Assembly: GCA_964535855.1 (NCBI GenBank)
Contig: CAZHVH010000041.1
Coordinates: forward strand, 1-14,259
Source of the DNA: an uncultured bacterium
GTDB lineage: Bacteria; Poribacteria; WGA-4E; B28-G17
Length of the DNA stretch: 14,259 nt
Direction of reading: 5' to 3'
Shown piece after piece: positions 1 to 13,474 of the stretch. The translations under genes were made by a program, and so were the position numbers. The notes under the pieces were generated by a model. The model had not been told where the DNA came from. It searched no databases and was given only the letters and a program-made list of their open reading frames with translations. Positions within the stretch are counted from its first letter, which is position 1, and every line of letters starts with the position of its first letter.

Positions 1-154
1 CCCGATCGGAGCCATCCTCATCAGGTATTCGATGTCATTCAGCGACTCCTCCCTCACGGAGAGAGCCGCCAGGGTATATATGAGGATCATAGCGCTCATC
101 ATCTCACTGGGTAATCCTATAATATCGGGGATGCGCATGTCAAGCCACCGCCGC

Positions 155-183
155 TTGACAGGTAAGCCAAAATCGGTTAGAAT
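155..183 (+). promoter_or_regulatory. Sigma70-type promoter upstream of the FAH-family gene: -35 TTGACA (155-160), 17-nt spacer, -10 TAGAAT (178-183)
   Basis: Read directly from the sequence: TTGACAggtaagccaaaatcggtTAGAAT. The -35 is a perfect hexamer, the -10 matches TATAAT at 5 of 6 positions, and the spacer is exactly 17 nt. It lies about 35 nt upstream of the ATG at 218, which is preceded by the purine-rich gggaagggacgggag. Confidence 0.5.
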
Positions 184-217
184 TATCCAGTCTAAATTCC
201 CAGGGAAGGGACGGGAG

Positions 218-1147
218 ATGCGCATTATCCAATTTTTCTTGCCTGGAGAGGGGAAAAGGGTAGGCGTTCTGGCCACGGACGGTAGGGTTATCGATATCAC
301 CACCGATGAGATCTCCAGCACCCTGCGACTTCTACAGATAGCGGAATCGGAGGGCGTAAGCCTAAACGTGATAGCGGCGGAGATGGAGGAGGAAATCTCG
401 CTTAAACATCCCGATAAGGAGGAGCTCCCCCGGATCACATTTCCCGAGCTTGATGTCCAACCCCGCGACAGTGTGCCTCATCTCCTCATCCCGATAGACC
501 CACCTGAAGTTTGGGGGTGTGGCGTCACATATTTCAGAAGTGCCGAGATGAGAGACATCGAAACGGAAGGAGATATCTACTCCAGGGCTTACAGAGCTGA
601 AAGGCCTGAGATCTTCTTCAAGGCCACCGCCTCCAGATGCGTCGGGCCAAATGAGCCGGTGTGCATACGCAGCGATTCGATCCATACCGCCCCTGAGCCT
701 GAACTCGCCTATATCCTCGACGGCAAGGGAAGGATTATCGGATATACGATAGCCAACGATATGTCGGCCTGGGACATAGAGAGGGAAAACCCGCTTTATC
801 TGCCCCAATCGAAGATTTACAGGGGATGTTGCGCTCTGGGGCCGATGATCGTCACCACATCCGAGATACCCGATCCTATGGACCTGAGCATAACCTGCAG
901 GATTATAAGGGAAAATGAGATAATTTTTGAAGGTGAGATCAACACATCTCAGATGAAACGATCGATAGATGAGATCAACGAATATCTGCTTCGGGACAAC
1001 CCGATCCCGACAGGCACGGTCGTGATGACGGGAACCGGAATCGTCGCCCCTAAGGATCTACCCTTAAGAGATGGGGATGTGGTGGAAATCGAAATCGAGG
1101 AGATAGGGGTTCTGAGCAACCCCGTTCGTAAGCTCGAACCTATTTGA
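218..1147 (+). CDS. Fumarylacetoacetate hydrolase (FAH) family protein. Candidates include 2-keto-4-pentenoate hydratase, 2-keto-3-deoxy-sugar-acid dehydratase or an oxaloacetate decarboxylase-like enzyme; the exact substrate is unknown.
   Basis: The ORF track's frame opens at 32, but residues 1-62 look non-protein-like. The FAH-typical N-terminus MRIIQFFLPGEGKRVGVLATDGRVIDIT begins at the ATG at 218, which has GGGAG immediately upstream. The C-terminal half carries FAH-fold signatures: EPELAYILDGKGRIIGYTIANDMSAWDIE, MTGTGIV, and GDVVEIEIEEIGVLSN. Confidence 0.75.
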   Translation: MRIIQFFLPGEGKRVGVLATDGRVIDITTDEISSTLRLLQIAESEGVSLNVIAAEMEEEISLKHPDKEELPRITFPELDVQPRDSVPHLLIPIDPPEVWGCGVTYFRSAEMRDIETEGDIYSRAYRAERPEIFFKATASRCVGPNEPVCIRSDSIHTAPEPELAYILDGKGRIIGYTIANDMSAWDIERENPLYLPQSKIYRGCCALGPMIVTTSEIPDPMDLSITCRIIRENEIIFEGEINTSQMKRSIDEINEYLLRDNPIPTGTVVMTGTGIVAPKDLPLRDGDVVEIEIEEIGVLSNPVRKLEPI

Positions 1148-1164
1148 GATCGAGAGGTCTTGAG

Positions 1165-2166
1165 GTGGAGGGGAAATTTAAAGTCGTGGCAACGGATGCA
1201 GGGAGGTTCGCTCCGAAGGTCGAAAGCGAGATCCTCGCGAAGCTCGGCGCGGAGGTGATCCCGGCCAGGTTTAAGGATGAGGACGAGCTTATCCAAAACG
1301 TTCGAGACGCCGACGCTATCCTCAACGCCGTGACCAAGATTACCAGGCGCGTGATAGAATCACTTCAAAAGTGTAGGGTTATAGTTCGATACGGTATAGG
1401 AGTCGACACGATAGACATACCGGCGGCAACCGAGCACGGGATATGTGTGGCGAACGTCCCTGATTTCTGCTGGGAGGAGGTATCGGATACGGCGATGAGC
1501 TTGATCCTGGCCGTATCCCGTAAGGTCGTATACATGAATAACCTGGTCAAAGAGGGCATATGGAGCAGGTCCAAGGCCGCCCCCATTCACAAATATCAGC
1601 TCCAGACCCTCGGGCTGCTCGCCTTCGGAAACATACCTAGAACCCTGGTAAAAAAGGCCAGACCTTTCGGATTCAAAAGAATTATATCCCATGACCCATA
1701 TGTATCCCAGGAGGTCTTCAGGCAATACGGTGTGGAGCCGGTGGATTTCGAGACGCTTCTGAGGGAGTCGGACATACTCTCGATTCATACCCCGCTGACG
1801 GAGGAGACATATCATATAATCGGCGAGCGTGAGTTGAGGATGATGAAGCCCACGGCCTATCTGATAAACACCAGCCGCGGTCCGGTTATAGATGAGAAGG
1901 CCCTTTGCAGGGCCCTCTCTGAGGGGTGGATCGCCGGAGCGGGATTGGACGTGATGGAGAAGGAGCCTCCCGACAGGGACAATCCGCTTCTGAAACTTGA
2001 TAACGTCGTCATAACGCCTCATTACGGCTCATACACCGAAGAGGCATATCACGAGCTGAAGGTCAAGGTGGCGGAGAACGCTGCCGCCTGCCTGAGGGGA
2101 GAGCTTCCGAAATACCTGGTCAATCCTGAGGTGGTGCCTAAGCTGAAATGGCTGAAGAAAAGATAA
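1165..2166 (+). CDS. D-isomer-specific 2-hydroxyacid dehydrogenase family protein (PGDH/CtBP-like, NAD-binding)
   Basis: The catalytic Arg/Glu/His triad is present: NTSRGPVID, GLDVMEKEP and ITPHYGSYT. There is a Rossmann beta-alpha-beta with a terminal Asp (KRIISHD), but its glycine-rich loop is the atypical AFGNIP rather than GxGxxG. The start is uncertain. The GTG at 1165 has a GAGAGG Shine-Dalgarno 8 nt upstream. The alternative TTG at 1144 overlaps the upstream stop as TTGA but has no Shine-Dalgarno. Confidence 0.8.
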   Translation: MEGKFKVVATDAGRFAPKVESEILAKLGAEVIPARFKDEDELIQNVRDADAILNAVTKITRRVIESLQKCRVIVRYGIGVDTIDIPAATEHGICVANVPDFCWEEVSDTAMSLILAVSRKVVYMNNLVKEGIWSRSKAAPIHKYQLQTLGLLAFGNIPRTLVKKARPFGFKRIISHDPYVSQEVFRQYGVEPVDFETLLRESDILSIHTPLTEETYHIIGERELRMMKPTAYLINTSRGPVIDEKALCRALSEGWIAGAGLDVMEKEPPDRDNPLLKLDNVVITPHYGSYTEEAYHELKVKVAENAAACLRGELPKYLVNPEVVPKLKWLKKR

Positions 2167-3587
2167 ACGTCTATCAGAATCCGCTCGTCCAGAGGTACTC
2201 CAGCGAGGAGATGCTTCGCAACTTCTCTCCTCAGAGGAGAGGGGAGATCTACAGGGAGCTTTGGATAGCGTTAGCTGAGGCAGAGAGGGAGCTGGGACTT
2301 CCTATAACCGAGGAACAGATAGAGGAGATGCGGAGGCACAAGAGCGATATAGATTTCGAGGAGATAGCGCGGGAGGAGCGCAGGATAAGACACGACGTGA
2401 TGGCACACATACGAATTTTTGGCTCACAATGTCCAAAGGCCAAGCCGATAATACATTTAGGAGCGACCAGCGCCTTCGTCGGGGATAACGCCGATCTCAT
2501 CCAGATGCGGGACGGGTTGAAGATACTGAGGGCGAGATTGGTGAACCTGATAGCCGCTCTGCGCGATTTCGCTCTGAGATATCGCGATCTGCCGACGCTC
2601 GGCTTCACTCACTTTCAGCCCGCTCAGCCGACGACCGTCGGCAAAAGGGCGACGTTATGGCTTCAGGATTTCGTGATGGATTATCACGAGATCGTGGGCA
2701 GAATCGAATCACTCAAGTTCCGTGGCGTCAAGGGCACAACGGGAACACAGGCCAGCTTTGTGAGGTTGTTCGGAGGGGATGAGGAGAAGGTCAAGAGGCT
2801 CGATCAGATGATCACTCGTAAGATGGGTTTCAGTGAAAGCTTTATCGTAACCGGACAGACGTATACCCGGAAGGTGGATGCTCAGATCGCCTCCGCTCTT
2901 TCCGGTATAGCGCAATCGGCGCACAAGTTCAGCAACGACATCAGGCTGTTGCAGCATCTAGGGGAGGTCGAGGAGCCTTTTGGGAAGAGCCAGGTCGGCT
3001 CATCCGCGATGGCTTATAAACGAAATCCGATGCGATGTGAGAGGATAGGGGCGCTTTCCAGATATGTGATCACATTGGCTCAAAGCCCTTATTTCACCGC
3101 TGCAAGCCAGTGGTTGGAGAGAACGCTGGATGACTCGGCCAACAAGCGGCTTTCGATACCGGAGCTCTTCCTAGCAACTGACGCCGTTCTGCTGGTATGC
3201 ATCAACGTCGCCCAGGGGTTGAAGGTATATCCCGAGGTGATAAGACGACATCTCGAGGAGAAGTTGCCCTTTATAGCGACGGAGGATATCCTCATGGAGT
3301 CGGTTAGAAGAGGAGGGGACAGGCAGGAGCTGCACGAGAGGATAAGAGGATACGCCATGGAGGTCACCCTGCAGATGAGATCGGGAGGTGAGAATGACCT
3401 GCTGGAGAGGATCGCCGCTGATAGCTCCTTCGGACTCTCCATGGAGGAGCTCAGGGAGATGATGATCCCCGGCAGATTCGTCGGTCGGGCGCCGTCACAG
3501 GTCGTCGAATTCATAGAAAGGGAGGTCGACCCTATAATTCAGCGAGACAGAGAGCTGATAGGCGCCGGGGTAGAACTAAAGGTGTGA
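2148..3587 (+). CDS. purB: Adenylosuccinate lyase (long, roughly 480-aa form)
   Basis: The N-terminus is NPLVQRYSSEEM...LWIALAEAERELGLPI. The fumarate-lyase signature is GSSAMAYKRNPMRCERI, against the adenylosuccinate lyase consensus GSSxMPxKxNP. Length and overall order fit PurB. It overlaps the upstream gene by 19 nt. Confidence 0.9.
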   Translation: MAEEKINVYQNPLVQRYSSEEMLRNFSPQRRGEIYRELWIALAEAERELGLPITEEQIEEMRRHKSDIDFEEIAREERRIRHDVMAHIRIFGSQCPKAKPIIHLGATSAFVGDNADLIQMRDGLKILRARLVNLIAALRDFALRYRDLPTLGFTHFQPAQPTTVGKRATLWLQDFVMDYHEIVGRIESLKFRGVKGTTGTQASFVRLFGGDEEKVKRLDQMITRKMGFSESFIVTGQTYTRKVDAQIASALSGIAQSAHKFSNDIRLLQHLGEVEEPFGKSQVGSSAMAYKRNPMRCERIGALSRYVITLAQSPYFTAASQWLERTLDDSANKRLSIPELFLATDAVLLVCINVAQGLKVYPEVIRRHLEEKLPFIATEDILMESVRRGGDRQELHERIRGYAMEVTLQMRSGGENDLLERIAADSSFGLSMEELREMMIPGRFVGRAPSQVVEFIEREVDPIIQRDRELIGAGVELKV

Positions 3588-3596
3588 GGTAACGCC

Positions 3597-4691
3597 ATGT
3601 TTTTCAGAAAAAAAGATGAGATGGAGATAAAACTGGCCTCAGGTAAGAACGACATATCGCCTGAAGCCTGCCTCAAGAGCATCATTGCCTCCCTGCTGCA
3701 GATAATAGGGATCTACGCCAAGGAGGGGGAAGGGCTCGAGACCTCCAAATACAAGCAGCAGCTCAGGGACATATCCATGAAACTGAAGGAGATCGAGGAT
3801 ATATTCGAGTTGAACCAGCTTAAGAACGATCTCACCCGACTTATCCTGAGACAGAAGGAGGCCGAGAGGATCTACGACGAAAAGAGGATATCGGAGCTGA
3901 AGGAGATAATAAGGCTTTTGATAAAGGCCCTTAACAAGTTTCTCTCCGATGACAAGGAGTTCAGTCAGGGAGTCGAGAAGGACATATCGAGACTGGAGGG
4001 GGCTTCGAGGCTGGAAGACATAAGGCTCATCAAGCAAGAGCTCTCACAGGTGGTGGGACAGTTGCAGGAAAGGCTTAAGGAGAGACAGAGCAGGCTGGAG
4101 AAAACGGCGGATGAACTGGCCGTTAGGGTGGTGGAGTTGGAGGAGAAGCTTTCTCAGATGACGGAGGAGGCGTTGATCGATGAGACGACGAAGCTCTTCA
4201 ACAGAAGGGCGCTCATGCGAAGGCTGGAGGAGGAGATAACCAGGTTCAACGTGACCAACATCCCGTTCTCCCTTGTCATATTCGACGTCGACCATTTCAA
4301 GCAGGTCAACGATGAGCACAACCACTTGATAGGCGATAAGGTGCTCTATATGGTTGGCCGGATAGCCAAGGAGACCTTCAGGGCGGACGACTTCGTGGCC
4401 AGAATGGCCGGGGATGAGTTCGCCGCTATGCTGTTCGGCAGCACCGGCACCGATAGCTGGAATGCCGTTGAGAGGTTGAGGAGCAACATAGCTAAGAAGG
4501 TCTTCAAATATGAGCGGGATGGCAAACCGGTGAGCATAAAGATAAGCATAAGCGCGGGGGTGGCATGGGTGAGAAGCGATGATACGCCGGAGACTCTCTT
4601 GGAACGGGCGGATAAGGCGATGTATCTGGCCAAACAGAGGGGGAGAGATCAGGTCGTCCCGGAATCCGAACTCAAGGAGGAGGGGGAATGA
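3597..4691 (+). CDS. Cytoplasmic diguanylate cyclase-like protein: N-terminal coiled-coil region of about 190 aa plus a C-terminal GGDEF domain with variant AGDEF active-site motif and an RxxD I-site
   Basis: GGDEF-domain landmarks are [47 protein letters not shown] (RxxD five residues before A-G-D-E-F, codons 4407-4421), [10 protein letters not shown] and [16 protein letters not shown]. Residues 1-190 are heptad-rich and charged ([30 protein letters not shown]...) with no TM segment and no recognisable sensor fold. Confidence 0.85.
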
Positions 4692-5476
4692 TAGTATATG
4701 AGGTCGGGGTGGCCCTCATCGCTGTTATCGTCCTGGCATACATGTCCATGAAGATACTTCGCGAGTATGAACGTGGAGTGGTTTTCAGGCTCGGTAAGCT
4801 CCATAAGGTGAAAGGGCCGGGGTTGGTCTTCATCATCCCATTCATAGATAGGATGGTGAGGGTATCGCTGAGGGTCAACGCCGTGGATGTGGAGGAGCAA
4901 GACGTCATAACCTCGGATAACGTCTCCGTTAAGGTGAACGCCGTCCTCTACTATAGGGTCGCCGATCCGGCCAACTCCGTCGTCGAGGTTGAGGATTACC
5001 AGTTCGCTACCACTCAGGTTGCTCTCACCGCCCTTAGGAGTGTCATCGGGAAGTTCGAGCTAGATGATCTCCTTTCCAAAAGGGAGGTGATAAACGAGGA
5101 GCTGAGCAGAACCGTTAAGGAGCATGTCGATCCCTGGGGGATATCAGTCTTGGCTGTTGAGGTTAAGGACGTGGATCTACCTGATGAGATGAAGAGAGCG
5201 ATGGCAAAGCAGGCTGAGGCGGAGAGGGAGAGAAGAGCCAAGGTTTTAAACGCTCAAGGTGAATATGAGGCCGCCGAAACGTTGCTCAAAGCCGCCCAGA
5301 CCATACAACAGAGTCCCACGGCCGTGCAACTGAGATTCCTTCAGACACTGATCGAGGTGGCGTCGGAGAACAACTCCACCATAGTATTCCCCTTACCTAT
5401 AGACCTATTAAGGCCATATCTTGCAAAAGAGGGGACAAAGGAGGTCGGTGCGAAAAATGCCAACGGGCAGAATTAA
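4688..5476 (+). CDS. SPFH/band-7 (stomatin/prohibitin-like) membrane protein
   Basis: An N-terminal TM helix ([16 protein letters not shown]) is followed by the stomatin signature [11 protein letters not shown], then [13 protein letters not shown] and a C-terminal coiled-coil ([20 protein letters not shown]). The start overlaps the GGDEF gene stop as ATGA. Confidence 0.9.
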
Positions 5477-6263
5477 ATACTATAACAGCCAGAAGGGATT
5501 CGGCTTTATCGCCCAGGACAGCGGGGAGCAAGATCTGTTCATGCACATCTCCTCCGTCAGAAAGCATGAAGGGGAGATACAACCGGGACACTTCGTCTAT
5601 TATGAGATAGGACAGGGCCGCAAAGGCTTGGAGGCCAAGAATATCATAGTATCATCCCGTAAGATAGACGAGAGCAAGCTTCAGGAGATTCTGAAACCCA
5701 GACGCCGAGCCCCTCGCCCCAAAGGCAAAGGAGGGCCGAAACAGCCTCAGAAGCAGGCTCAGCCGACACAACCTCAGGTGAAGAAAAAGAAAAAATTGAT
5801 CCCGGATGACGCCTACATGATCAAGCAGGCCAAAAACCAAACGCCCATGGTCTTCGAGATCTACGACCATCCTCACCTCAAATGCCTGGTCAAAAAGAAA
5901 TACAAATACGATATCGATCTCCTCATAGACGGAGAGGTCAAGCGATTCTTCATGCACGACATCAAGTTCTGCTATAAGGTGCGGGACGAGGAGAAGGTCA
6001 AACGGGCGATCAGTTACGACGAAGAGGTGAGATCACAAAATCTCAAGGCGATCATACCCCGCAAGGAGAGATACAAGATCCCGGATGAGGAGCTGAAGAA
6101 GGCATACAAGGAGGAAAAGCCGATAATGCTGGTCATGCGAGGCGGCGAAGTGATAATCGGCACGATAGAATGGTATTCGAAATATGCCATCAAGGTTAAC
6201 CTCCCAATAGGAGGTTCCGTGCTGGCATTCAGACATGCCGTCTATAAATTCCAGAGCCTGTGA
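5457..6263 (+). CDS. Cold-shock-domain protein with Lys/Pro/Gln-rich basic linker and a C-terminal extension of about 155 aa ending in a putative Hfq/Sm-like motif
   Basis: The CSD carries RNP1 KGFGFI and an RNP2-like DLFMHI ([34 protein letters not shown]...[14 protein letters not shown]). The linker is [34 protein letters not shown]. The C-terminus is [45 protein letters not shown], against Hfq [26 protein letters not shown]...MVYKHAIS. The start is at ATG 5457, with an AAGGAGG Shine-Dalgarno 11 nt upstream; the track's TTG at 5421 is unlikely. It overlaps the SPFH gene by 20 nt. Confidence 0.7.
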
Positions 6264-6271
6264 GATTTAAG

Positions 6272-7297
6272 ATGAGAGTTGTCGTCTACGGATCAGGGGC
6301 CTTCGGCTTCGCATTAGCGAAATACCTCGGTGATAAGTTCCGAATGGATAAGGCGGTGGAGATCTGTCTCTACGATAGGAATGAGGATCTGATCTCTCAC
6401 ATCAAAACCGCCCGAACCCACCCCGTTCATTATCCGGATATCCCCCTTCCCATGAAGGTGAAACCCACCTTTGATATCAAATGCGTCCGGGAGGCCGATT
6501 TGATAATACTGGTCGTTCCGAGCCAGTCCCTTAGATCGGTCTCGAGGGAGTTCGCCGGATATGTCCCCCACAAAGCGACGGTGCTCAACGCCACAAAGGG
6601 GTTGGAGCTGGGAAGCTGTAAGAGGCCATCACAGGTCATAGGCGAGGAGCTGAGCAAGGCTAACTTTAAAGGTGAGATAGCGACCTTCTCCGGAGGAACG
6701 ATAGCGTCGGAGATGATCATGGGAGCAGCACTGGGGGCGGAGATCGCATGTCCGAACAGAGAGGTGGCGAGATGGCTTCAGGGATTCATGGCCAGCGACA
6801 GGCTCAGAATATATGCTAATACGGATATCGTAGGCGTGGAATATGCCGGGGCCTTCAAAAACGTTATCTCCATCGGAGCGGGGATCTCCGACGGGTTGAA
6901 CAACCCCTGGGGCACCAAGACGCTCCTCATATCGCGGGCGTCAGCCGAGGTCAAGAGGCTGGCGTTAAAGTTAGGCGCTCAGCCGCATACCTTCTCCGCC
7001 GAAAGCCAGGCTTGGTGCAACGATCTGTGGATGAGCTGTATGGGTAACACCAGAAACAGATATTTCGGGGAGCTTATCGGAAGGGGATTATCGGTCGAGG
7101 AGGCCCTCAAGGTGATGAGCCATGAGAGAAAGCTGGTCGAGGGGTATTACACCACGAAATCGGCCTATCAGCTCGCTCAGGAACATGAGGTGGACGCGCC
7201 GATCATCAAGGCCGTCCACGATGTCCTTTATCTCGGAAGAGACCCGCTGGAAGCGATGAGGGAGCTTATGTCCCGTTCGCTCAAATTCCTCAATTGA
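6272..7297 (+). CDS. gpsA: NAD(P)H-dependent glycerol-3-phosphate dehydrogenase
   Basis: The N-terminal Rossmann segment is MRVVVYGSGAFGFALA, followed by TDIVGVEYAGAFKNVISIGAGISDGL and GNTRNRYFGELIGRGLSVEEA. These match GpsA's conserved blocks TDVVGVE.GGALKNVIAIAAGI.DGL and ...RNRRFG..LG.G. The start is most likely ATG 6272, 8 nt after the upstream stop. GTG 6260 is the alternative. Confidence 0.85.
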   Translation: MRVVVYGSGAFGFALAKYLGDKFRMDKAVEICLYDRNEDLISHIKTARTHPVHYPDIPLPMKVKPTFDIKCVREADLIILVVPSQSLRSVSREFAGYVPHKATVLNATKGLELGSCKRPSQVIGEELSKANFKGEIATFSGGTIASEMIMGAALGAEIACPNREVARWLQGFMASDRLRIYANTDIVGVEYAGAFKNVISIGAGISDGLNNPWGTKTLLISRASAEVKRLALKLGAQPHTFSAESQAWCNDLWMSCMGNTRNRYFGELIGRGLSVEEALKVMSHERKLVEGYYTTKSAYQLAQEHEVDAPIIKAVHDVLYLGRDPLEAMRELMSRSLKFLN

Positions 7298-7310
7298 GGG
7301 GGAGATTGAG

Positions 7311-8207
7311 GTGAACGATCTGGATGAGATCAGGGAGATCATAGATAGGCTTAAATCCCTCGTGCAGGAGGGTAAGATCGACCCGAAAACCCTTCTGGCT
7401 GAGATAGGCGGCGAATCGAAAGGCGAAGTGAGGGAGATAAATCTGGAGGAGATAGCAGCCGAGGAGAGCGAGGCGCAATCTTACTTCTTCGGAGAGGAGA
7501 TCCGGTTCGCTGCCGAAGACTTCGAGCCTTATTCGGAGGAAATCCGCCGTTGTATGCCCTTCGGGCTCGAACCACACATACTGCTGCCCAGAAGCTTCAC
7601 ACCCCAATCGCAATACCCCGGCTGGCGCGTCAGGATGGAGAAATGGGTCTACACGCGGATCGAGAACGAGGAAATGCCGCCGGAGACGATAAACCTCTCC
7701 CCATACTTCGATACGGCGGCCCTCGTGCTGGTAGACACCCGGATGAAGCCGGACTATCAAAACGGCAGACAGATGTACCGGAACGATTCCGACTTTTTGG
7801 GAAAGATCATAGGCCAGATGAGGGAAAACGGCGTCATACCGAGGCGGGGATATATAGAGAAAGGGTCCAGATATGCTATTTCGTGGACCGAGATACATAG
7901 GTTCATTCTGCCTGAATTGGCGAAGCTGCTGGGGCTGAAGAGGGATCAGATTAGGCTGCCAAGGCTCGTGGAGTTCTGTTTCTTAAGCGACTGTTTCTAT
8001 CCGCAATGGTATCAAGGTAACACATGGGAGTGGTTCGAGGACAATGTGAGGTTCGGCAGTAGGGAGGAGAAGCTCTTCGGAGGCAAGTTCAGTTTTGCCA
8101 CCATGTCAACATCGGTCTACACCAACTGGCCGGAGGCGAGAAGCGACAGGATAGGCTTTCGCCCTCTTATCCTCCTCGGCAAACTCGATCGATGGAAGCT
8201 GGGGTGA
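7311..8207 (+). CDS. Cytoplasmic FGE-sulfatase (SUMF1/EgtB-C-terminal-like) domain protein with an acidic N-terminal extension of about 85 aa; no Cys at the position of the FGE copper-binding Cys pair in my alignment
   Basis: It begins at a GTG with a GGGGGAG Shine-Dalgarno 8 nt upstream. FGE-domain blocks are visible: AISWTEIHRF...RLPRLVEFCF (cf. SUMF1 VSWNDAVAYC...RLPTEAEWEY), GNTWEWFED (cf. GNAWEWTSD), KLFGGKFSF (cf. RVKKGGSYM) and RSDRIGFRP (cf. NLGFRCA). There is no signal peptide. Where FGE has its CxxxxC, this protein has FATMSTSVY. Confidence 0.45.
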   Translation: MNDLDEIREIIDRLKSLVQEGKIDPKTLLAEIGGESKGEVREINLEEIAAEESEAQSYFFGEEIRFAAEDFEPYSEEIRRCMPFGLEPHILLPRSFTPQSQYPGWRVRMEKWVYTRIENEEMPPETINLSPYFDTAALVLVDTRMKPDYQNGRQMYRNDSDFLGKIIGQMRENGVIPRRGYIEKGSRYAISWTEIHRFILPELAKLLGLKRDQIRLPRLVEFCFLSDCFYPQWYQGNTWEWFEDNVRFGSREEKLFGGKFSFATMSTSVYTNWPEARSDRIGFRPLILLGKLDRWKLG

Positions 8208-8213
8208 TAGCCG

Positions 8214-10061
8214 ATGCCCAACCTCTTCGCATACGGAATGCTCATGAACGACTCCATAACCAGACGCGTCACGGGAAAGGTTTTCCCGAAAAAGAGGGCC
8301 ATACTTGAGAATTACGAGAAGATAATGCCCGGAACAGGATACTCCTATATCCTTCCAAAAGTTGGTTCCACCGTGGAGGGATATATACTGTATGGGATCG
8401 ACGAGGAGACCATAACGAAGATAGATCGATACGAGGCGGAGGGAGACCTATATGACCGGAAGGAGGTGGAGGTGATCGTTCAAGGCCGACGTGAGAGGGC
8501 CTATGCCTATGTGGGAAACCTGCACGGACTGAACAAATTCTTCGGACCCGAGGTCTACACGGATGTGAGGATCAAGGAGTATCTCGAGAGGAAGCTGAAG
8601 GATCTGACCGACCTGGAGGATCAGGAGAGCACAGATCTCGTCCACAGGGCAAAGGCCGAGCTGCTGGGCGATAAGATAGAGGCGCTCATCTCAGCCCATT
8701 TTCGAAGATCTGCCGATCTGAGATATCTGATAGATAAGATCCTCTACAAGCCCTCCCTCCCGACCTTAGAGGGCGTCAAATCCGATCCGGAGGCATTGAG
8801 GTACGCCAACGCCTATATCAAATTGATGGTCAAGCACGTGATCTTCAACCAGCTTGAACGTATGATCAACAATGCCTTCGCCGGCGAGATCACCGTGAAT
8901 CCTAAATTCCATGAGAGAACGCTCTCCAATCTCGTCGCTCTCATATTTATGAACAGAAAAAGCATTGCCGTGGAGAAGATCATGGAGGCGATCGGGGCTA
9001 ACAGGCTGAGCATGGATAAGGATTATCTGGAATATACGGTGATGGGAATCAGGATAGCCGATATGATCTTCGACCCGATGGAGATCAAGGAGATCATCGA
9101 ATGGGTGAGAGGGCACAGGCATCCGGGCAGAGTTCCCCTCGGTGCTGAAATCGAAATGAGCGATATAGGGGCGAGGGCCGTTGATGCGCTGCCGGGAGAG
9201 GACAACAGATATGATAGCTTCTACTACTTCAACGACTTCGATCTGCTACATAGATGCTGGAAACTCGGAGGACATGTGGACGATCATTCAGGCGTGGAGG
9301 AGCCTGAAGGACGAACGAGGGGATTCTTCGAGTATTCACTGGGGAAGATCGGCACGATAGGCGATTTCTCCAAGCCGGTCACAGACGATCCATGGGTGTT
9401 GAACCAGTTGATAAATCAAGCCGTGCTCTTCGCTGACATCCTGCCCCACAGCTTCCATATCACCCTCGACGCTCAAGGCGAACCGGATATGTCACGCTCC
9501 AGCGATCCGGAGCTTCTGATCTGCCTGTTGCTTCTGTGTGGCGATATAGAGCCGGATAAAGGCGGACATCTTCATGAAAACAGGATCTGCAATTGTGAGA
9601 TAATCGATAAATACGGCAGATTACACTTCAGCGATGAAAACGTCCACTTCGCCTCGGAGGAAGACAAAGAGGAGGGGTTCATAGGGCGGTCAAGGAGAGC
9701 GAACCTGATCGAATACAAGTTCATGAGGCTCAAGAGCAATCATAACTACGAGCCCTTCATCCTAGCCTTAAAGGGGTTCCAGCTCGGATACAACCCCAGA
9801 CCTTTGGGCTCCACTTTCAGATCCTTGGATGAGTTCAAATTCCCCGAGATCGAGGCTCTAAGGGAATGGGCGGAAAGACCTCAACCTCTGTCTAGATCCA
9901 TCCTGATGGAATTCCTTCGGCTGGTGAGAGAAGGGCTGATGAGGGAGAACGAGGGGAAACCTGCCCATCCGATCGATTACATAGAGTATAACCTCAAAAA
10001 GATCGAGAGGAAATTAGACGAGGTGAATGAACTGATAAAATCGAGCGGAAGGAGGGGATAA
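8214..10061 (+). CDS. Large uncharacterised protein: N-terminal gamma-glutamyl cyclotransferase-like domain (YtfP/AIG2/GGACT family, residues 1-105) plus a C-terminal region of about 510 aa of unknown fold with a Cys cluster
   Basis: The N-terminus aligns block-for-block with E. coli YtfP. MPNLFAYGML matches MRIFVYGSL, ENYE matches DNYQ, GSTVEGYILYGIDEETITKIDRYE matches GTVHGEVYRIDNATLAELDALR, and EAEGDLYDRKEVEV matches the catalytic-Glu block GGEYARQLIQ. The remainder has no motif I recognise: no Walker A, no nuclease and no kinase signature. A Cys/His patch, ICLLLLCGDIEPDKGGHLHENRICNCEI, sits at residues 437-461. The start is 4 nt after the upstream stop, and the stop overlaps the argC start as TAATG. 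Confidence 0.6.
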   Translation: MPNLFAYGMLMNDSITRRVTGKVFPKKRAILENYEKIMPGTGYSYILPKVGSTVEGYILYGIDEETITKIDRYEAEGDLYDRKEVEVIVQGRRERAYAYVGNLHGLNKFFGPEVYTDVRIKEYLERKLKDLTDLEDQESTDLVHRAKAELLGDKIEALISAHFRRSADLRYLIDKILYKPSLPTLEGVKSDPEALRYANAYIKLMVKHVIFNQLERMINNAFAGEITVNPKFHERTLSNLVALIFMNRKSIAVEKIMEAIGANRLSMDKDYLEYTVMGIRIADMIFDPMEIKEIIEWVRGHRHPGRVPLGAEIEMSDIGARAVDALPGEDNRYDSFYYFNDFDLLHRCWKLGGHVDDHSGVEEPEGRTRGFFEYSLGKIGTIGDFSKPVTDDPWVLNQLINQAVLFADILPHSFHITLDAQGEPDMSRSSDPELLICLLLLCGDIEPDKGGHLHENRICNCEIIDKYGRLHFSDENVHFASEEDKEEGFIGRSRRANLIEYKFMRLKSNHNYEPFILALKGFQLGYNPRPLGSTFRSLDEFKFPEIEALREWAERPQPLSRSILMEFLRLVREGLMRENEGKPAHPIDYIEYNLKKIERKLDEVNELIKSSGRRG

Positions 10062-11107
10062 TGGTTAAGGTGGGAATCGTCGGGGCGTCGGGATATACCA
10101 GCAGTGAGCTGCTAAGGTTTCTACTGTCACATCCCGAAGAGGTCAAAATCGAGATACTCACCTCTCAGACCTATGCCGGAGAGCGGATCGATAAGGTCAT
10201 ACCCAATCTTCGGGGATTCATGGATCTCCGCTTCGAGAGATTTGATCCCGATGAGGTCGCATCCAGATGCGATATAGTCTTCCTTGCCCTTCCCCACAAA
10301 GTCGCCATGCAGTTCGCCCCGCCACTTCTGGAGAGAGGGGTGAGGGTGATAGACTTCAGCGCGGACTACAGGCTGAAGGACGTAAAAACATACGAGAGAT
10401 GGTATGGCGTCGAACACACATCTCCTCATCTGATTAAGAGGGCGGTCTACGGATTGCCCGAGTTACACAGGGAGGAGATAAAGGATGCGCGCCTCGTCGC
10501 CAACCCCGGATGCTATCCCACGGGCGCTATACTGGCCGCCGCCCCCCTGATGAGGCGCGAGGGGATCGTGGATAGATCTCTCGTGATAGTCGACGCCAAA
10601 ACCGGAATCTCAGGGGCGGGCAGGAAACCCTCCGACAGAACGCACTATCCTTCCCGGACGGAGAACTTCGAGCCCTATAACGTTATGGCGCACAGACACT
10701 CGCCGGAGATGGAACAGGAACTGAGCCTTATCGCCTCAGAACAAGTCCTCGTGGCCTTTACACCACATCTGGTGCCGATGAGCAGGGGTATACTGAGCAC
10801 CCTCTACTTCAGGATGACCGGGGCTGTTTCCACGAAAGAGCTGCTGGAAATCTATAGGGAATTTTACAGATCGGAGCCGTTCATCAGGGTGCTGGATAAG
10901 GGCGAGCTTCCATCGACGAAGGCGGTCTACGGGAGCAACTTCTGCGACATAGCCGTCCTAGCGGATGAACGGACGGGCACCGTGGTCGTCATGTCGGCCA
11001 TAGATAACCTCGTGAAGGGCGCCTCAGGTCAGGCGTTGCAGAACATGAACCTGATGTGTGGGTTCGATGAGAGGGCGGGGCTCAACCTAGCCCCTCTGAT
11101 GCCGTAG
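10061..11107 (+). CDS. argC: N-acetyl-gamma-glutamyl-phosphate reductase (an ArgC/LysY-type semialdehyde dehydrogenase)
   Basis: Conserved blocks are MVKVGIVGASGYTSSELLRFL, the active-site Cys in LVANPGCYPTGAILA, TGISGAGRK, HRHSPEMEQEL, FTPHLVPMSRG and AIDNLVKGASGQALQNMNLMCGF. A GGAGGGG Shine-Dalgarno lies upstream. Confidence 0.92.
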   Translation: MVKVGIVGASGYTSSELLRFLLSHPEEVKIEILTSQTYAGERIDKVIPNLRGFMDLRFERFDPDEVASRCDIVFLALPHKVAMQFAPPLLERGVRVIDFSADYRLKDVKTYERWYGVEHTSPHLIKRAVYGLPELHREEIKDARLVANPGCYPTGAILAAAPLMRREGIVDRSLVIVDAKTGISGAGRKPSDRTHYPSRTENFEPYNVMAHRHSPEMEQELSLIASEQVLVAFTPHLVPMSRGILSTLYFRMTGAVSTKELLEIYREFYRSEPFIRVLDKGELPSTKAVYGSNFCDIAVLADERTGTVVVMSAIDNLVKGASGQALQNMNLMCGFDERAGLNLAPLMP

Positions 11108-11684
11108 ACGTCCTTATCACGCGTTCCTCCGTTATGATCACATCCATTCGTATATCCCAATCCTCGTTCGGTACCTTATCGACGATCTGGAATTCATATG
11201 CCAGCCCCACAAAAAGCGCGTTCGAACACAGCGGTAGGAATCTATCGTAATATCCTCCCCCGTATCCGATCCTATATCCTCTCGGATCAAATCCCACGCC
11301 GGGAACCACGACGACATCTATCAAGCTGGGATCGACCCGCTGTCCCTTCTCCCTCGAGGGCTCAGGTATGCTGTATTCGCCATCCACTAGATCATCGGGG
11401 ATCCTGTTCACCGTGTAGGGCAGGATTCTCCTCTGAGCTCTATCGACCACCGGGGCACAGACCATCTTGCCCATCCTCAGAAGCTCCCTGCCCAGCTCGT
11501 AGGTATCCACCTCGTTCCTTACGCTGATGTAGATCATCACCACGTTGAATCCCTGCTCCTCCGTTAGCTCGATGAACCTGTATCGTATCTTGGAGCTCCT
11601 CCCGATCACCTCATCAGGGCTAAGCGCCCTGCATTTCCTCAGTATTCGCCTGCGCAGTTTATCTTTTGCTTCGGCTGAACCCAT
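11082..11684 (-). CDS. 5-formyltetrahydrofolate cyclo-ligase (MTHFS family)
   Basis: KDKLRRRILRKCRALSPDE...VVMIYISVRNEVDT...IDVVVVPGVGFDPRGYRIGYGGGYYDRFL is the characteristic glycine-rich C-terminal block of the family. An AGGAGG Shine-Dalgarno lies 10 nt upstream of the ATG at 11684. Its 3' end overlaps the argC 3' end by 26 nt, in convergent orientation. Confidence 0.85.
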   Translation of the reverse strand: MGSAEAKDKLRRRILRKCRALSPDEVIGRSSKIRYRFIELTEEQGFNVVMIYISVRNEVDTYELGRELLRMGKMVCAPVVDRAQRRILPYTVNRIPDDLVDGEYSIPEPSREKGQRVDPSLIDVVVVPGVGFDPRGYRIGYGGGYYDRFLPLCSNALFVGLAYEFQIVDKVPNEDWDIRMDVIITEERVIRTSTASEGLG

Positions 11685-12225
11685 GATGTCCGAGCCTCCT
11701 ACCGACGTTCCAGTACTCTCCTAGAACGAAGACCAGCGGGTTAAGCTTCCCGGGAATGATTCCCCCTCTCTCGTCGAGCACCTCCTCATCGACGTGTATG
11801 GCGACCACCTCACCCATGAAGAAGTCGTGATATCCTATCGGCTGGACGGATTTCAACACACATTCGACGTTGATGGGGCACTCCTTTATCAGGGGCGGTT
11901 TGACTACGGAGGCGGGCAGAGGCGTCAGGCCGAACCTATCGAATTTATCCACATCTCTGCCTGAAACGCACCCGCATCCGTCCACCTTCTCCGCCAGATC
12001 GGCCGTCGGGAAGTTCACGACGAATTCTTTCGTCCTTCTTATCAGGCCGTTTGAGTATCTTTCAGGGGCTATGGCAAGCATCATCATCGTCGGGTTGGCG
12101 ATACACGGATGTGCTACCTCGGCCAGGGTGATTATGTTCGGCCTGCCCTCCTCGTCAACGCACGTGATGAGGGCGGCAGGGGTCGGATAAACTATTCGCC
12201 TCGGCGACATCCTGACCTTGCTCAC
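11659..12225 (-). CDS. Flavin reductase-like (FMN-binding split-barrel, HpaC/NADH:flavin oxidoreductase family) protein
   Basis: YPTPAALITCVDEEGRPNIITLAEV...MMMLAIAPERYSNGLIRRTKEFVVNF matches the Flavin_Reduct domain pattern. The start is GTG at 12225, with AGGAGG 6 nt upstream. The in-frame ATG at 12210 is the alternative. It overlaps the downstream 5-FCL start by 26 nt. Confidence 0.75.
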   Translation of the reverse strand: MSKVRMSPRRIVYPTPAALITCVDEEGRPNIITLAEVAHPCIANPTMMMLAIAPERYSNGLIRRTKEFVVNFPTADLAEKVDGCGCVSGRDVDKFDRFGLTPLPASVVKPPLIKECPINVECVLKSVQPIGYHDFFMGEVVAIHVDEEVLDERGGIIPGKLNPLVFVLGEYWNVGRRLGHHGFSRSKR

Positions 12226-12235
12226 ACCACACCTC

Positions 12236-13474
12236 CTATGCCCTGCTTTTTGTTGATAGCCCCTCGCTCACCTTTCTGATAGCCCTTGCTATATCGGCTA
12301 TATCCTCCTCGTTCATGAACTCGTTTACGGATATGGTGATAAGCCTGTCGAGGACCGACTCGGCGACGGGGCATAATCCCTCGGTGTATTCGACCTTAGC
12401 TGAGGTATACCTGCAGTTGAAAGGGCAGTCCGAATCGCCGTAGATCTTCTTATTCCTCACCGCCTCGTGACACAGAAAGATGGGTTTGCCGATATAATGC
12501 GCCCCGGCCGGTATGCCCTCGGCGGAGAGGGCTTTCGCGAACTGACTGGCGGTGAAAGGTGCATCTTCATCGACGACCATCCCGTAGTACCAATACACGC
12601 ATCGACACCCATCCAAAACCCTCTGCGGCTTGACACCCCCGACATCCGATATCATCTCGCTGAGCATGTCTCCGAGCCTGTTCCTGGTCTCGGTCACCCA
12701 CTTGACCTTCCTCAATTGCGCGATTCCGACGGCGGCCTGTAGCTCCGTCATCCTGTAATTCATCCCGAACATGGCGTAATGCCTGGGCCCTGAGACCCAT
12801 CTCTCCCATCCCTTATCGACGAAGATCGCCCCGCGGTCACCGTATTCGTCGTTATCGGTTATCGTCATTCCCCCGTCGCCGGTTATCATATGCTTGCTCT
12901 GTTGGAAGCTGAAACAGCCTATATCCCCTATGGTGCCGGTCAGCTTGCCCTTATATGAGGCCAGATGAGCCTGGGCGCTGTCTTCCACGAGAGCGATCCC
13001 ATGTCTACGCGCAACCCGGAGAAGTCCGTCCATGTCGGATGGGTTTCCGAAGAGGTGAATCGCTATGATCGCCTTCGTTTTCGGGGTGATCTTACGTTCG
13101 ACGTCGTCGGGGTCGAGGTTGAAGGTATCCGGCTGGATATCGGCGAAGACCGGTATGGCGTTTTGGGCGAGGATAGGTATAACCGTCCCTATATCCGTTA
13201 TCGGCCCGGTTATAACCTCATCGCCGGGGTTGAGGTTCAGCATCGCCATCGCCACGTGTATCGCAGCCGTGCCGGATGTGCTGGATACGGCCCTTTTGAC
13301 GCCGTAAAGCTGGGCGAACTTCTCCTCGAACTCCCTGACCCTCGCCCCTCGGAAGAGGTTGCCGGAATCTATCACCTTCCTCAGCTCCTCGAGTTCCTCA
13401 TCTCCCACCTTCTTGACGGGTGGAAACGGCCTGTCCCTTACAGGTTTGCCACCGTCTATGGCCAGCTTTTCCAT
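12236..13474 (-). CDS. DegT/DnrJ/EryC1/StrS-family PLP-dependent aminotransferase (keto-sugar or inosose aminotransferase-like)
   Basis: SSTSGTAAIHVAMAM, DEVITGP, ALVEDSAQAHLA, and the PLP-lysine block DIGCFSFQQSKHMITGDGG are present. The C-terminal half is DegT-typical (AQLRKV...). A GGGGAGAGAGAG Shine-Dalgarno lies upstream of the ATG at 13474. Confidence 0.85.
   Translation of the reverse strand: MEKLAIDGGKPVRDRPFPPVKKVGDEELEELRKVIDSGNLFRGARVREFEEKFAQLYGVKRAVSSTSGTAAIHVAMAMLNLNPGDEVITGPITDIGTVIPILAQNAIPVFADIQPDTFNLDPDDVERKITPKTKAIIAIHLFGNPSDMDGLLRVARRHGIALVEDSAQAHLASYKGKLTGTIGDIGCFSFQQSKHMITGDGGMTITDNDEYGDRGAIFVDKGWERWVSGPRHYAMFGMNYRMTELQAAVGIAQLRKVKWVTETRNRLGDMLSEMISDVGGVKPQRVLDGCRCVYWYYGMVVDEDAPFTASQFAKALSAEGIPAGAHYIGKPIFLCHEAVRNKKIYGDSDCPFNCRYTSAKVEYTEGLCPVAESVLDRLITISVNEFMNEEDIADIARAIRKVSEGLSTKSRA

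Follow-up and report, generated by a model that had tools for sequence, protein, structure and literature searches.

A putative bifunctional gamma-glutamyl ligase/cyclotransferase lies beside a non-diversified relative of retroelement-targeted variable proteins in a Poribacteria-type genome

We analyzed a stretch of 14,259 nucleotides (nt; hereafter the window) from an uncultured bacterium of the Poribacteria (GTDB lineage WGA-4E; B28-G17; contig CAZHVH010000041.1 of assembly GCA_964535855.1), centered on two plus-strand open reading frames (ORFs) located between gpsA and argC. ORF8 (7311-8207, GTG start) encodes 298 amino acids (aa) and ORF9 (8214-10061, ATG start at 8214) encodes 615 aa. An initial annotation had presented them as a two-gene module in which a protein resembling the formylglycine-generating enzyme (FGE) would work together with a gamma-glutamyl-cleaving one. 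Our own reading, to which we assign a probability of about 60%, is that they are two evolutionarily independent genes that are neighbors in one lineage: ORF9 would be a bifunctional gamma-glutamyl ligase/cyclotransferase, and ORF8 a fixed ligand-binding protein of a family many of whose members are targets of diversity-generating retroelements (DGRs). That both proteins are uncharacterised and that the C-terminal extension of ORF9 is unusually long, as first noted, holds.

The N-terminal 110 aa of ORF9 are a clear member of the GGACT family by profile, fold and motifs, in agreement with the initial annotation. Residues 4-102 (8223-8519, +) form a GGACT/AIG2-like gamma-glutamyl(amine) cyclotransferase domain; they score 63.3 bits with Pfam GGACT (PF06094), for a cut-off of 22.8 (E 4e-17), and the same match is present in 79/79 homologues. 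A profile built from these 79 sequences matches the Arabidopsis AIG2-like structures 2jqv (E 2.6e-16) and 2g0q (E 6.6e-15), PHROGs returns a gamma-glutamyl cyclotransferase (E 3e-8), and the GGCT fold was found for this domain. The YGxL motif is conserved (Y7 and G8 in 75/79, L10 in 76/79), as is the EAEGDLY block, where G77 is present in all 79 and E76, the candidate catalytic Glu, in 73, aligned with the EG of 2jqv. Searches of ORF9 against Pfam, NCBIfam, PADLOC and PHROGs detected a GGACT-type domain only, and the PDB profile search with the whole family returned AIG2 proteins only.

The remaining 500 aa or so, said at first to match nothing, do have a recognisable counterpart once predicted structure is considered, namely the glutamine-synthetase (GS)/GCL/PafA fold. 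The AlphaFold2 model of ORF9 has a predicted local distance difference test score (pLDDT) of 88.2 and a predicted template modeling score (pTM) of 0.79. After the cyclotransferase domain comes an all-helical linker or lid (residues 118-301; 8565-9116, +), whose helices span residues 118-133, 141-177, 198-222, 236-259 and 271-301 according to DSSP on the model; it has no specific structural match, although in the model it may fall within the 374-column Foldseek alignment to Dop. It is followed by a glutamine-synthetase-fold carboxylate-amine ligase domain (residues 302-530; 9117-9803, +), structurally closest to Dop/PafA and GCL, with the saddle-shaped antiparallel sheet and helices on its convex face. 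The protein ends with a C-terminal helical bundle (residues 544-614; 9843-10055, +) made of helices 544-554, 561-576 and 587-614, all modeled with pLDDT >95 and containing the invariant residues W552, F567, G574 and L575.

The motifs of this superfamily were defined by Iyer, Burroughs and Aravind (PMC2588565): GhExE in strand 1, its "distinctive signature", acidic residues in strands 2 and 3, [HD]x[NH] in strand 4, Ex[RK]xxD in strand 6, and two arginine fingers. ORF9 carries the signature as G310-A-E312-I-E314 (9141-9155, +) on strand 309-315 of the model, with G310, E312 and E314 invariant in 79/79 homologues. D356 (strand 353-356) and E373 (strand 371-376) are likewise invariant in 79/79, and H358 is a further invariant family residue there; these strand equivalences follow strand order in the model and not a residue-level superposition. 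Strand 411-419 holds P-H412-S413-x-H415 (76, 79 and 78 of 79), a polar-x-His or H-x-x-H arrangement of non-canonical spacing relative to [HD]x[NH], and at strand 496-501 stands [E/Q]500-x-[K/Q]502-F503-x-R505, where Arg replaces the Asp of Ex[RK]xxD. R457 and R505 are invariant among the 79 homologues. Thus, the first two motif sets fit cleanly and the remaining ones approximately. Comparisons of the C-terminal domain with single sequences in hhalign were insignificant (1.4% for E. coli YbdK, 0.7% for GshA); nevertheless, the YbdK alignment registers PLGAEIEMS of ORF9 on TLGIELEMQ, and only this GhExE register was used from it. Taken together, the domain is a branch of a known superfamily that is unrecognised at the sequence level. 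A conserved Cys/His metal site, which a cysteine patch in this region could suggest, was considered and rejected: the four cysteines of the patch (C437, C442, C459 and C461) exist in this sequence as first described, but C437 is the sole conserved one (75/79), C442 being replaced by Gly/Ala in 76/79 and C459 and C461 varying freely.

The family defined by ORF9 is widespread. A word-indexed search recovered 82 homologues of 600-686 aa, all with the GGACT domain save a few truncated ones, and a scan with one genome per species found relatives in 352 genomes. Hosts are above all Planctomycetota; others are Poribacteria, Omnitrophota, Auribacterota, Coatesbacteria, KSB1 and Zixibacteria, along with Victivallales and Verrucomicrobia, Spirochaetes, Acidobacteriota and Thermodesulfobacteriota. 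Public annotation of these proteins reads just "gamma-glutamylcyclotransferase" and leaves two-thirds of the chain without any assignment. A profile search using the C-terminal domain alone revealed no other architecture, only fragments and frameshift-split genes (e.g., L151; homologous loci are cited here by number), and therefore the fusion of GGACT and ligase domains is obligatory. The closest homologue, P0001 (91% identity), was deposited as "Candidatus Micrarchaeota archaeon"; all others are bacterial, a relative at 70% is from Poribacteria, and the archaeal label is probably a binning error.

Gene neighborhoods of ORF9 homologues point to no universal partner. Counting immediate neighbors at 75 loci, we found family 2 glycosyltransferases (GT2), as upstream neighbors, at 19, HMGL-like synthases at 9, alanine racemase, Peptidase_S49 and malate/lactate dehydrogenase at 7 each, NUDIX at 6 and phosphoribosyltransferase at 5; Asp/Glu racemase (2), heptosyltransferase (3), Amidase_2 and SpoIID also occur. 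There is a mild cell-envelope flavor and a mild glutamate/central-metabolism flavor in these lists, neither of them decisive. In 27-28 Planctomycetota/Omnitrophota loci, a GT2 gene and a gene for a large GT-C-like membrane protein lie directly upstream on the same strand (examples within L038-L089 are L058 2567-5173 and L038 4071-4814; L009 and L013 are others). This membrane protein has about 870 aa, with a PMT_2 match in L009 (2101-4197), and a class-I aminotransferase is often found further upstream. In Zixibacteria, KSB1 and Coatesbacteria, an HMGL-like synthase precedes the ORF9 homologue, which is followed by a conserved protein of 170-190 aa and then by a full-length aconitase. The small partner starts 3 nt past the ORF9 stop, is uncharacterised and has no Pfam match (L021-L029 and L032; e.g., L025 4532-5929, 7824-8345). 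Elsewhere, Auribacterota show the order sigma-70, adenine phosphoribosyltransferase (APRT), ORF9 homologue, Gln/Glu-tRNA synthetase, and in Phycisphaerae a divergent radical-SAM gene and a convergent DJ-1 gene stand beside the homologue. A link to LysW or another amino-carrier protein, through argC and the HMGL-like/aconitase neighbors, was also considered; there is no ORF for a carrier, small ORFs of Pup-like or LysW-like type were looked for across the window and none turned up, and the HMGL-like synthase with a full-length aconitase presumably resembles a citrate-synthase/aconitase pair more.

ORF8 has no match to any family of Pfam, NCBIfam, PADLOC or PHROGs at E<=1 and no signal peptide in its sequence, and a word-indexed search yielded no more than three clusters (95, 74 and 61% identity), each of Poribacteria type. 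Profile searching of 1.84 billion representatives expanded the family to 394 proteins at E<=1e-3 (252 at E<=1e-10), mostly of 250-330 aa, some of which carry the domain C-terminal to AAA_5 ATPases, a HAD hydrolase or a Ser/Thr kinase. We inspected 58 metagenomic loci, 2 of Poribacteria type and 56 others. In the latter, the family genes often come in at least two copies per locus; a reverse transcriptase (RT) of about 346 aa (RVT_1, E 1e-22) is encoded a few hundred nt downstream in 18/56, bAvd (E 3e-20) in 8/56 and a von Willebrand factor A (vWA) protein in 12/56. RT or Avd is present in 21/56 loci, a proportion that becomes 16/33 when only loci flanked by 2.5 kb or more are counted.

The final ~120 nt of these genes recur in the spacer before the RT, forming pairs of variable repeat (VR) and template repeat (TR). 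In seven loci, 78-95% of the VR/TR mismatches fall at TR adenines: 17/18 in L129, 21/22 in L101, 19/21 in L114, 20/23 in L113, 18/20 in L117, 23/27 in L142 and 21/27 in L140. Adenine-specific mismatches of this kind are the hallmark of DGRs, which makes the ORF8 family one of DGR variable proteins. The VRs of the seven DGR-linked homologues align to ORF8 residues ~245-290. Other metagenome DGR loci (L094, L096, L100, L112 and L121) include some with two or three paralogous targets and some with targets of 680-920 aa, in which the ORF8-like domain follows an AAA_5 ATPase at the C-terminus, with a gene for a vWA protein nearby. MoxR-vWA conflict or sensor systems have been reported as DGR targets, and these AAA_5/vWA loci resemble them.

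ORF8 itself can be divided into three parts. Its N-terminal arm (residues 1-44; 7311-7442, +) is poorly conserved, with 6/44 columns invariant among four orthologues, and is helical in a low-confidence model. The family core (residues 45-235; 7443-8015, +), as delimited by the family alignments, contains the motifs FFGxEI, HxLP, PGWxVxP, DxRxKPxYxxGxQxY, SRFxIS and RLPRxIEFN and has no Pfam, PDB or profile match. The C-terminal stretch (residues 236-290; 8016-8180, +; GNTWEWFED...LFGGKFSF...RSDRIGFRP) is both weakly FGE-like and equivalent to the VR, and in this lineage it is fixed. Pfam on the scanned genes of the window identifies no RT or Avd (the upstream genes are of non-RT families in the orthologous locus L005), the direct-repeat search of the window finds no TR copy and no repeat involving 7990-8207, and the orthologous loci L005 and L007 contain no RT, Avd or TR within +/-8 kb. 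Among the four orthologues (61-95% identity), 31/46 columns (67%) of the VR-equivalent stretch are invariant, compared with 53-57% in the core, and all four share the same residues at the sites of variation in the DGR-linked homologues (F256, K259, F262, Y270-W273 and E275-R280). Because RT, Avd and TR are missing nearby and the VR-equivalent stretch is conserved, ORF8 itself is not, judging by its sequence, being diversified.

The resemblance to FGE noted at the outset is retained, weakly, for the C-terminus alone. Aligned with hhalign to an alignment of 11 FGE sequences built from plasmid records, the ORF8 family gave best probabilities of 33-38% (P about 3-5e-4), against 0.1-0.3% for reversed or unrelated controls; the aligned part covers ORF8 residues 236-289 (GNTWEW to GFRP, 52-53 columns) and SUMF1 positions 211-284. 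Across all comparisons with the FGE alignment the range was 19-38%, restricted to the C-terminal ~55 aa, and against a single SUMF1 sequence the family reached 0.5%. The ISW...RLPRLVEF block, which the initial annotation had included in the similarity, was not reproduced. None of 76 family members matches Pfam FGE-sulfatase, and ORF8 finds no such profile at E<=1 in Pfam or NCBIfam, an outcome that the initial annotation had listed among those that would refute its proposal. The segment aligned with SUMF1 ...GGSYMCHRSYC... has no Cys, so that a sulfatase maturase is not expected, as had been argued from the missing Cys pair. Published structures place DGR variable proteins, Mtd and TvpA among them, in the FGE subclass of C-type lectin folds (PMC5006420). 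ORF8 is most likely a ligand-binding protein.

Two observations on the FGE theme are worth recording. The best match in the PDB profile search of the ORF8 family was 5aoh_A, not significant at E 1.3; this chain is labelled "Spore coat protein CotH" yet matches human SUMF1 at E 6e-7, which may point to a mistaken label or to an FGE fold in this chain. Pfam detects no sulfatase or DinB gene in the window. In the relative at 80% identity (L007), a sulfatase gene converges on argC (10884-12281, -; in L008, 4219-5583, -), and 2.5 kb beyond lies a radical-SAM/SPASM gene (13474-14580, +) whose product is possibly an anaerobic sulfatase maturase.

Are ORF8 and ORF9 a pair? The arrangement described initially is confirmed by ORF calls and Pfam: the ORF8 stop (TGA, 8205-8207) is separated by 6 nt from the ORF9 start, and the ORF9 stop (TAA, 10059-10061) shares one base with the ATG of argC at 10061, giving a TAATG overlap. 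The flanking genes are gpsA (6260-7297, +; NAD_Gly3P_dh_N E 3e-31, NAD_Gly3P_dh_C E 4e-37) and argC (10061-11107, +; Semialdhyde_dh E 2e-34, Semialdhyde_dhC_1 E 1e-62), both treated here as context only. Yet the spacing that was taken as translational coupling, real as it is, is common to the whole region. From 32 to 11107, ten consecutive plus-strand genes overlap or lie at most 13 nt from the next: an FAA-hydrolase-family gene, 2-hydroxyacid dehydrogenase, adenylosuccinate lyase, GGDEF, Band-7, cold-shock-domain, gpsA, ORF8, ORF9 and argC, identities being taken from Pfam matches of the window genes and of the L005 orthologues. These ten genes are functionally unrelated, and start/stop overlap is a compaction feature of this genome and a poor indicator of functional linkage. 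Since all ten are equally packed, the ORF8/ORF9 spacing is no evidence of a functional pair.

Comparative data lead to the same view. Among 89 loci with an ORF9 homologue, an ORF8-like gene, gpsA or argC stands alongside only in the 5 Poribacteria-type loci and in 0/84 others; conversely, the 58 ORF8-family loci contain an ORF9 homologue only in the 2 of Poribacteria type and in 0/56 others. Neither the FGE-like partner nor argC recurs beyond the Poribacteria-type loci, and the two-gene module is not borne out: with no recurrence of the adjacency outside this clade, the pairing is lineage-specific and not a conserved one.

We hypothesize that ORF9 is a cytoplasmic bifunctional enzyme. Its GS-fold domain would use ATP to activate a carboxylate through an acyl-phosphate and then couple this with an amine, following the mechanism common to the superfamily (PMC2588565); judging from GCL, GS and PafA as analogues, the gamma-carboxylate of a glutamate is the most likely candidate. 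The GGACT domain, in turn, would cleave a gamma-glutamyl-amine by cyclisation, yielding 5-oxoproline and the free amine. As the two reactions are opposed, the gamma-glutamyl group is probably put on and later taken off the amine of a pathway intermediate or macromolecule, following a protect/deprotect or tag/untag logic for which BtrG in butirosin biosynthesis, bacterial gene neighborhoods that combine a ligase with AIG2, and phage amidoligase plus GGCT cassettes would be precedents. The gamma-glutamyl chemistry suggested initially may in this way survive within ORF9 alone, whose ligase and cyclotransferase halves would suffice, and not as a product of an ORF8/ORF9 partnership. ORF8 would not be an enzyme partner; in other organisms its family appears as DGR targets with the VR in a C-terminal segment resembling the FGE-type C-lectin fold.

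Several points weigh against this combined reading. The GCS2, Pup_ligase, Gln-synt_C and Amidoligase_2 profiles match 0/79 ORF9 family members (Pfam/NCBIfam, E<=1), and the ligase assignment therefore comes from predicted structure and motifs, two of which deviate (H-S-x-H for [HD]x[NH] in strand 4, [EQ]x[KQ]xxR for Ex[RK]xxD in strand 6). A ligase and a cyclotransferase acting on the same bond would make a futile cycle, and the two activities would then have to be separated in time or by substrate. For ORF8, the FGE-type match is only 33-38% probable, and the AlphaFold model, computed from a 4-sequence alignment, is unusable (pLDDT 45). Finally, the order gpsA-ORF8-ORF9-argC is kept in all recovered Poribacteria-type loci despite differing outer flanks; the window aside, these loci represent three separate contexts (L005/L006, L007/L008 and L010/L090/L091), and a lineage-specific functional link between ORF8 and ORF9 is thus conceivable, its positive support being synteny within a single clade. 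It must also be considered that Dop has the same fold and acts as an amidase, not a ligase. The ORF9 C-terminal domain could accordingly be a Dop-like ATP-cofactor amidase or a regulatory pseudo-ligase, making the protein purely catabolic, from gamma-glutamyl amides/peptides to 5-oxoproline. The invariant GhExE, the acidic residues of strands 2 and 3 and the two invariant arginines are what phosphotransfer expects, although Dop keeps them too and they do not discriminate; we see this as a possible but unlikely alternative. With a similarly tentative standing, the substrate of ORF9 could be a cell-envelope component (a peptidoglycan stem peptide, an amino-sugar or a lipid-linked glycan), as was proposed for phage gamma-glutamyl amidoligase and GGCT cassettes (PMC5498523). 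The GT2 and GT-C-like genes upstream of so many homologues, the racemase, heptosyltransferase, Amidase_2 and SpoIID neighbors, and gpsA, lying upstream of ORF9 in the window with ORF8 as the one gene between them, are all in line with this. However, a single phylum supplies most such loci, and their synteny is likely inherited; in other clades the gene stands beside HMGL-like synthase and aconitase, malate dehydrogenase, APRT, Gln/Glu-tRNA synthetase or argC; and a search of the viral fold database BFVD gave GGCT matches only and no phage amidoligase.

The remaining alternatives concern what ORF8 does for ORF9, or for itself. In an ergothioneine-like pathway, ORF8 would form or bind a gamma-glutamyl-cysteine adduct, in the manner of FGE or EgtB, and ORF9 would remove the glutamate. 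The two genes are indeed adjacent and tightly spaced in the window and its Poribacteria-type relatives, ORF8 has weak FGE-type similarity at its C-terminus, and the GGACT domain is real. Yet ORF8 and 75 relatives show no FGE-sulfatase, EgtB or DinB match, a family of DGR targets is expected to bind ligands and not to catalyze, neither the 84 other ORF9 loci nor the 56 other loci of the ORF8 family show the adjacency, all ten genes of the string are as tightly spaced, and ORF9 has a ligase domain of its own and needs no partner for the gamma-glutamyl bond. The EgtB/OvoA-like enzymatic role once suggested for ORF8 falls with these results; the model is already largely refuted, and we regard it as the least probable of all. 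A less remote option, although still quite improbable, is that ORF8 was recruited in the Poribacteria-type lineage as a substrate-recognition or regulatory subunit that delivers a protein or ligand to a PafA/Dop-like ligase-amidase. Consistent with this, the four-gene block is maintained at 61-74% ORF8 identity between different outer flanks, with 4-nt overlaps at the junctions of L005 and gaps of 6 nt in both L007 and the window, the ORF8-type domain occurs elsewhere fused to AAA_5 ATPases, a Ser/Thr kinase or HAD, as a sensor or adaptor, and the ligase domain is structurally closest to the protein-modifying Dop and PafA. All of this comes from one narrow clade, where shared ancestry explains the synteny equally well; the two genes do not co-occur outside it, and unrelated neighbors are packed as tightly. 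A bolder version, which we consider very unlikely, would make the ORF9 family an equivalent, outside Actinobacteria, of the pupylation enzymes. Its PafA/Dop-like domain would write or erase marks on proteins or envelope components, either isopeptides of the gamma-glutamyl-lysine type or analogous gamma-glutamyl-amines; the GGACT domain would be a built-in "eraser", and in Poribacteria a domesticated DGR-type C-lectin protein, ORF8, would be the specificity subunit. Finally, ORF8 could still be an active DGR target, with an RT/TR cassette at some other genomic site diversifying it in trans. Remote targets are within the reach of DGRs, and the frequency of RT or Avd at the family's other loci, above all those with longer flanks, speaks for it; against it, nothing of a DGR was found within the 14 kb of the window or +/-8 kb in two orthologous loci, and the DGR-variable positions are identical in orthologues just 61% identical overall, which leaves this as a slim chance, slighter even than the pupylation-like scheme.

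Two further genes of the window deserve mention. The product of the gene at 5421-6263 (+), which is kept upstream of gpsA in L005/L006, has 280 aa and comprises a cold-shock domain at its N-terminus (E 5.8e-16), a Lys/Pro-rich linker and a C-terminal part with weak Hfq-like matches (Hfq_1 E 0.031, Hfq E 0.12); the product could be an unusual RNA-binding fusion of cold-shock and Sm-like domains. On the opposite strand, at 12236-13474 (-), a DegT/DnrJ/EryC1-type sugar aminotransferase (E 5e-95) is found 1.1 kb past argC and ~2.2 kb from the ORF9 stop, which is interesting given the glycosyltransferases beside ORF9 homologues elsewhere and may be a coincidence.

Among characterised proteins, ORF8 is nearest to DGR variable proteins of the FGE-type C-lectin class, such as Mtd and TvpA, being homologous to proteins that carry a ~120-nt VR at the 3' end beside RT and bAvd. 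It differs from them in having no RT, Avd or TR nearby, in the fixed state of its VR-equivalent and in its location within a string of housekeeping genes. Its C-terminal series GNxWEW...GGS...GFR resembles FGE, although Pfam FGE-sulfatase does not recognise the family; relative to SUMF1, EgtB and PvdO, this resemblance is short, there is no profile match and no Cys pair, and the N-terminal two-thirds remain unmatched. A scaffold that is hypermutated by DGRs in low-GC groundwater/sediment metagenome contigs can therefore be fixed, without RT, in a housekeeping string, and this case bears on the origin or domestication of DGR targets.

As for ORF9, its N-terminal 110 aa are of the same family as human GGACT (3juc), the A. 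thaliana AIG2-like protein 2jqv and BtrG. The characterised cyclotransferases matched in the PDB are stand-alone proteins of ~115-285 aa, and YkqA has two cyclotransferase domains, whereas here the domain is the N-terminal module of 615 aa. The ligase half differs from GshA, GshAB, plant GCL and YbdK/GCS2 in domain context and in its deviating strand-4 and strand-6 motifs, the similarity being insignificant (hhalign 1.4% and 0.7%, as above). It also differs from PafA/Dop of Actinobacteria: there is no Pup_ligase profile match, no Pup-like ORF (C-terminal GGQ/GGE) in the window, and no proteasome or Mpa gene in any locus examined. To our knowledge, no N-terminal GGACT domain is present in PafA or Dop.

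The closest parallel is the "new CAL" family (Iyer, Burroughs and Aravind 2008, PMC2588565; later Pfam Amidoligase_2), together with the cassette of phiEco32-type phages, where a GS-fold ATP-dependent amide ligase is likewise paired with GGCT/AIG2. Both share the GhExE first strand with ORF9, and neither has a Pup-like small ORF nearby. ORF9, in turn, would fuse both activities in one chain of 600-680 aa, with a helical linker of ~190 aa between them, has a ligase half that has diverged beyond the reach of Pfam, NCBIfam and PHROG models, occurs in Poribacteria, Planctomycetota, Omnitrophota and other phyla and not in Firmicutes or phages, and lacks glutamine-amidotransferase or ATP-grasp partners. 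Current understanding is overturned by neither the ORF8 nor the ORF9 result: the components were known, as was the pairing of ligase and cyclotransferase. What is new is that a ligase domain is recognised in a widespread family known to annotation as GGCT alone, that the fusion is obligatory, and that the FGE-like neighbor is a fixed relative of DGR targets. ORF9 extends the ligase and cyclotransferase theme from gene neighborhoods in Firmicutes and phages to an obligatory fusion, conserved in at least 352 species genomes from mostly uncultured phyla.

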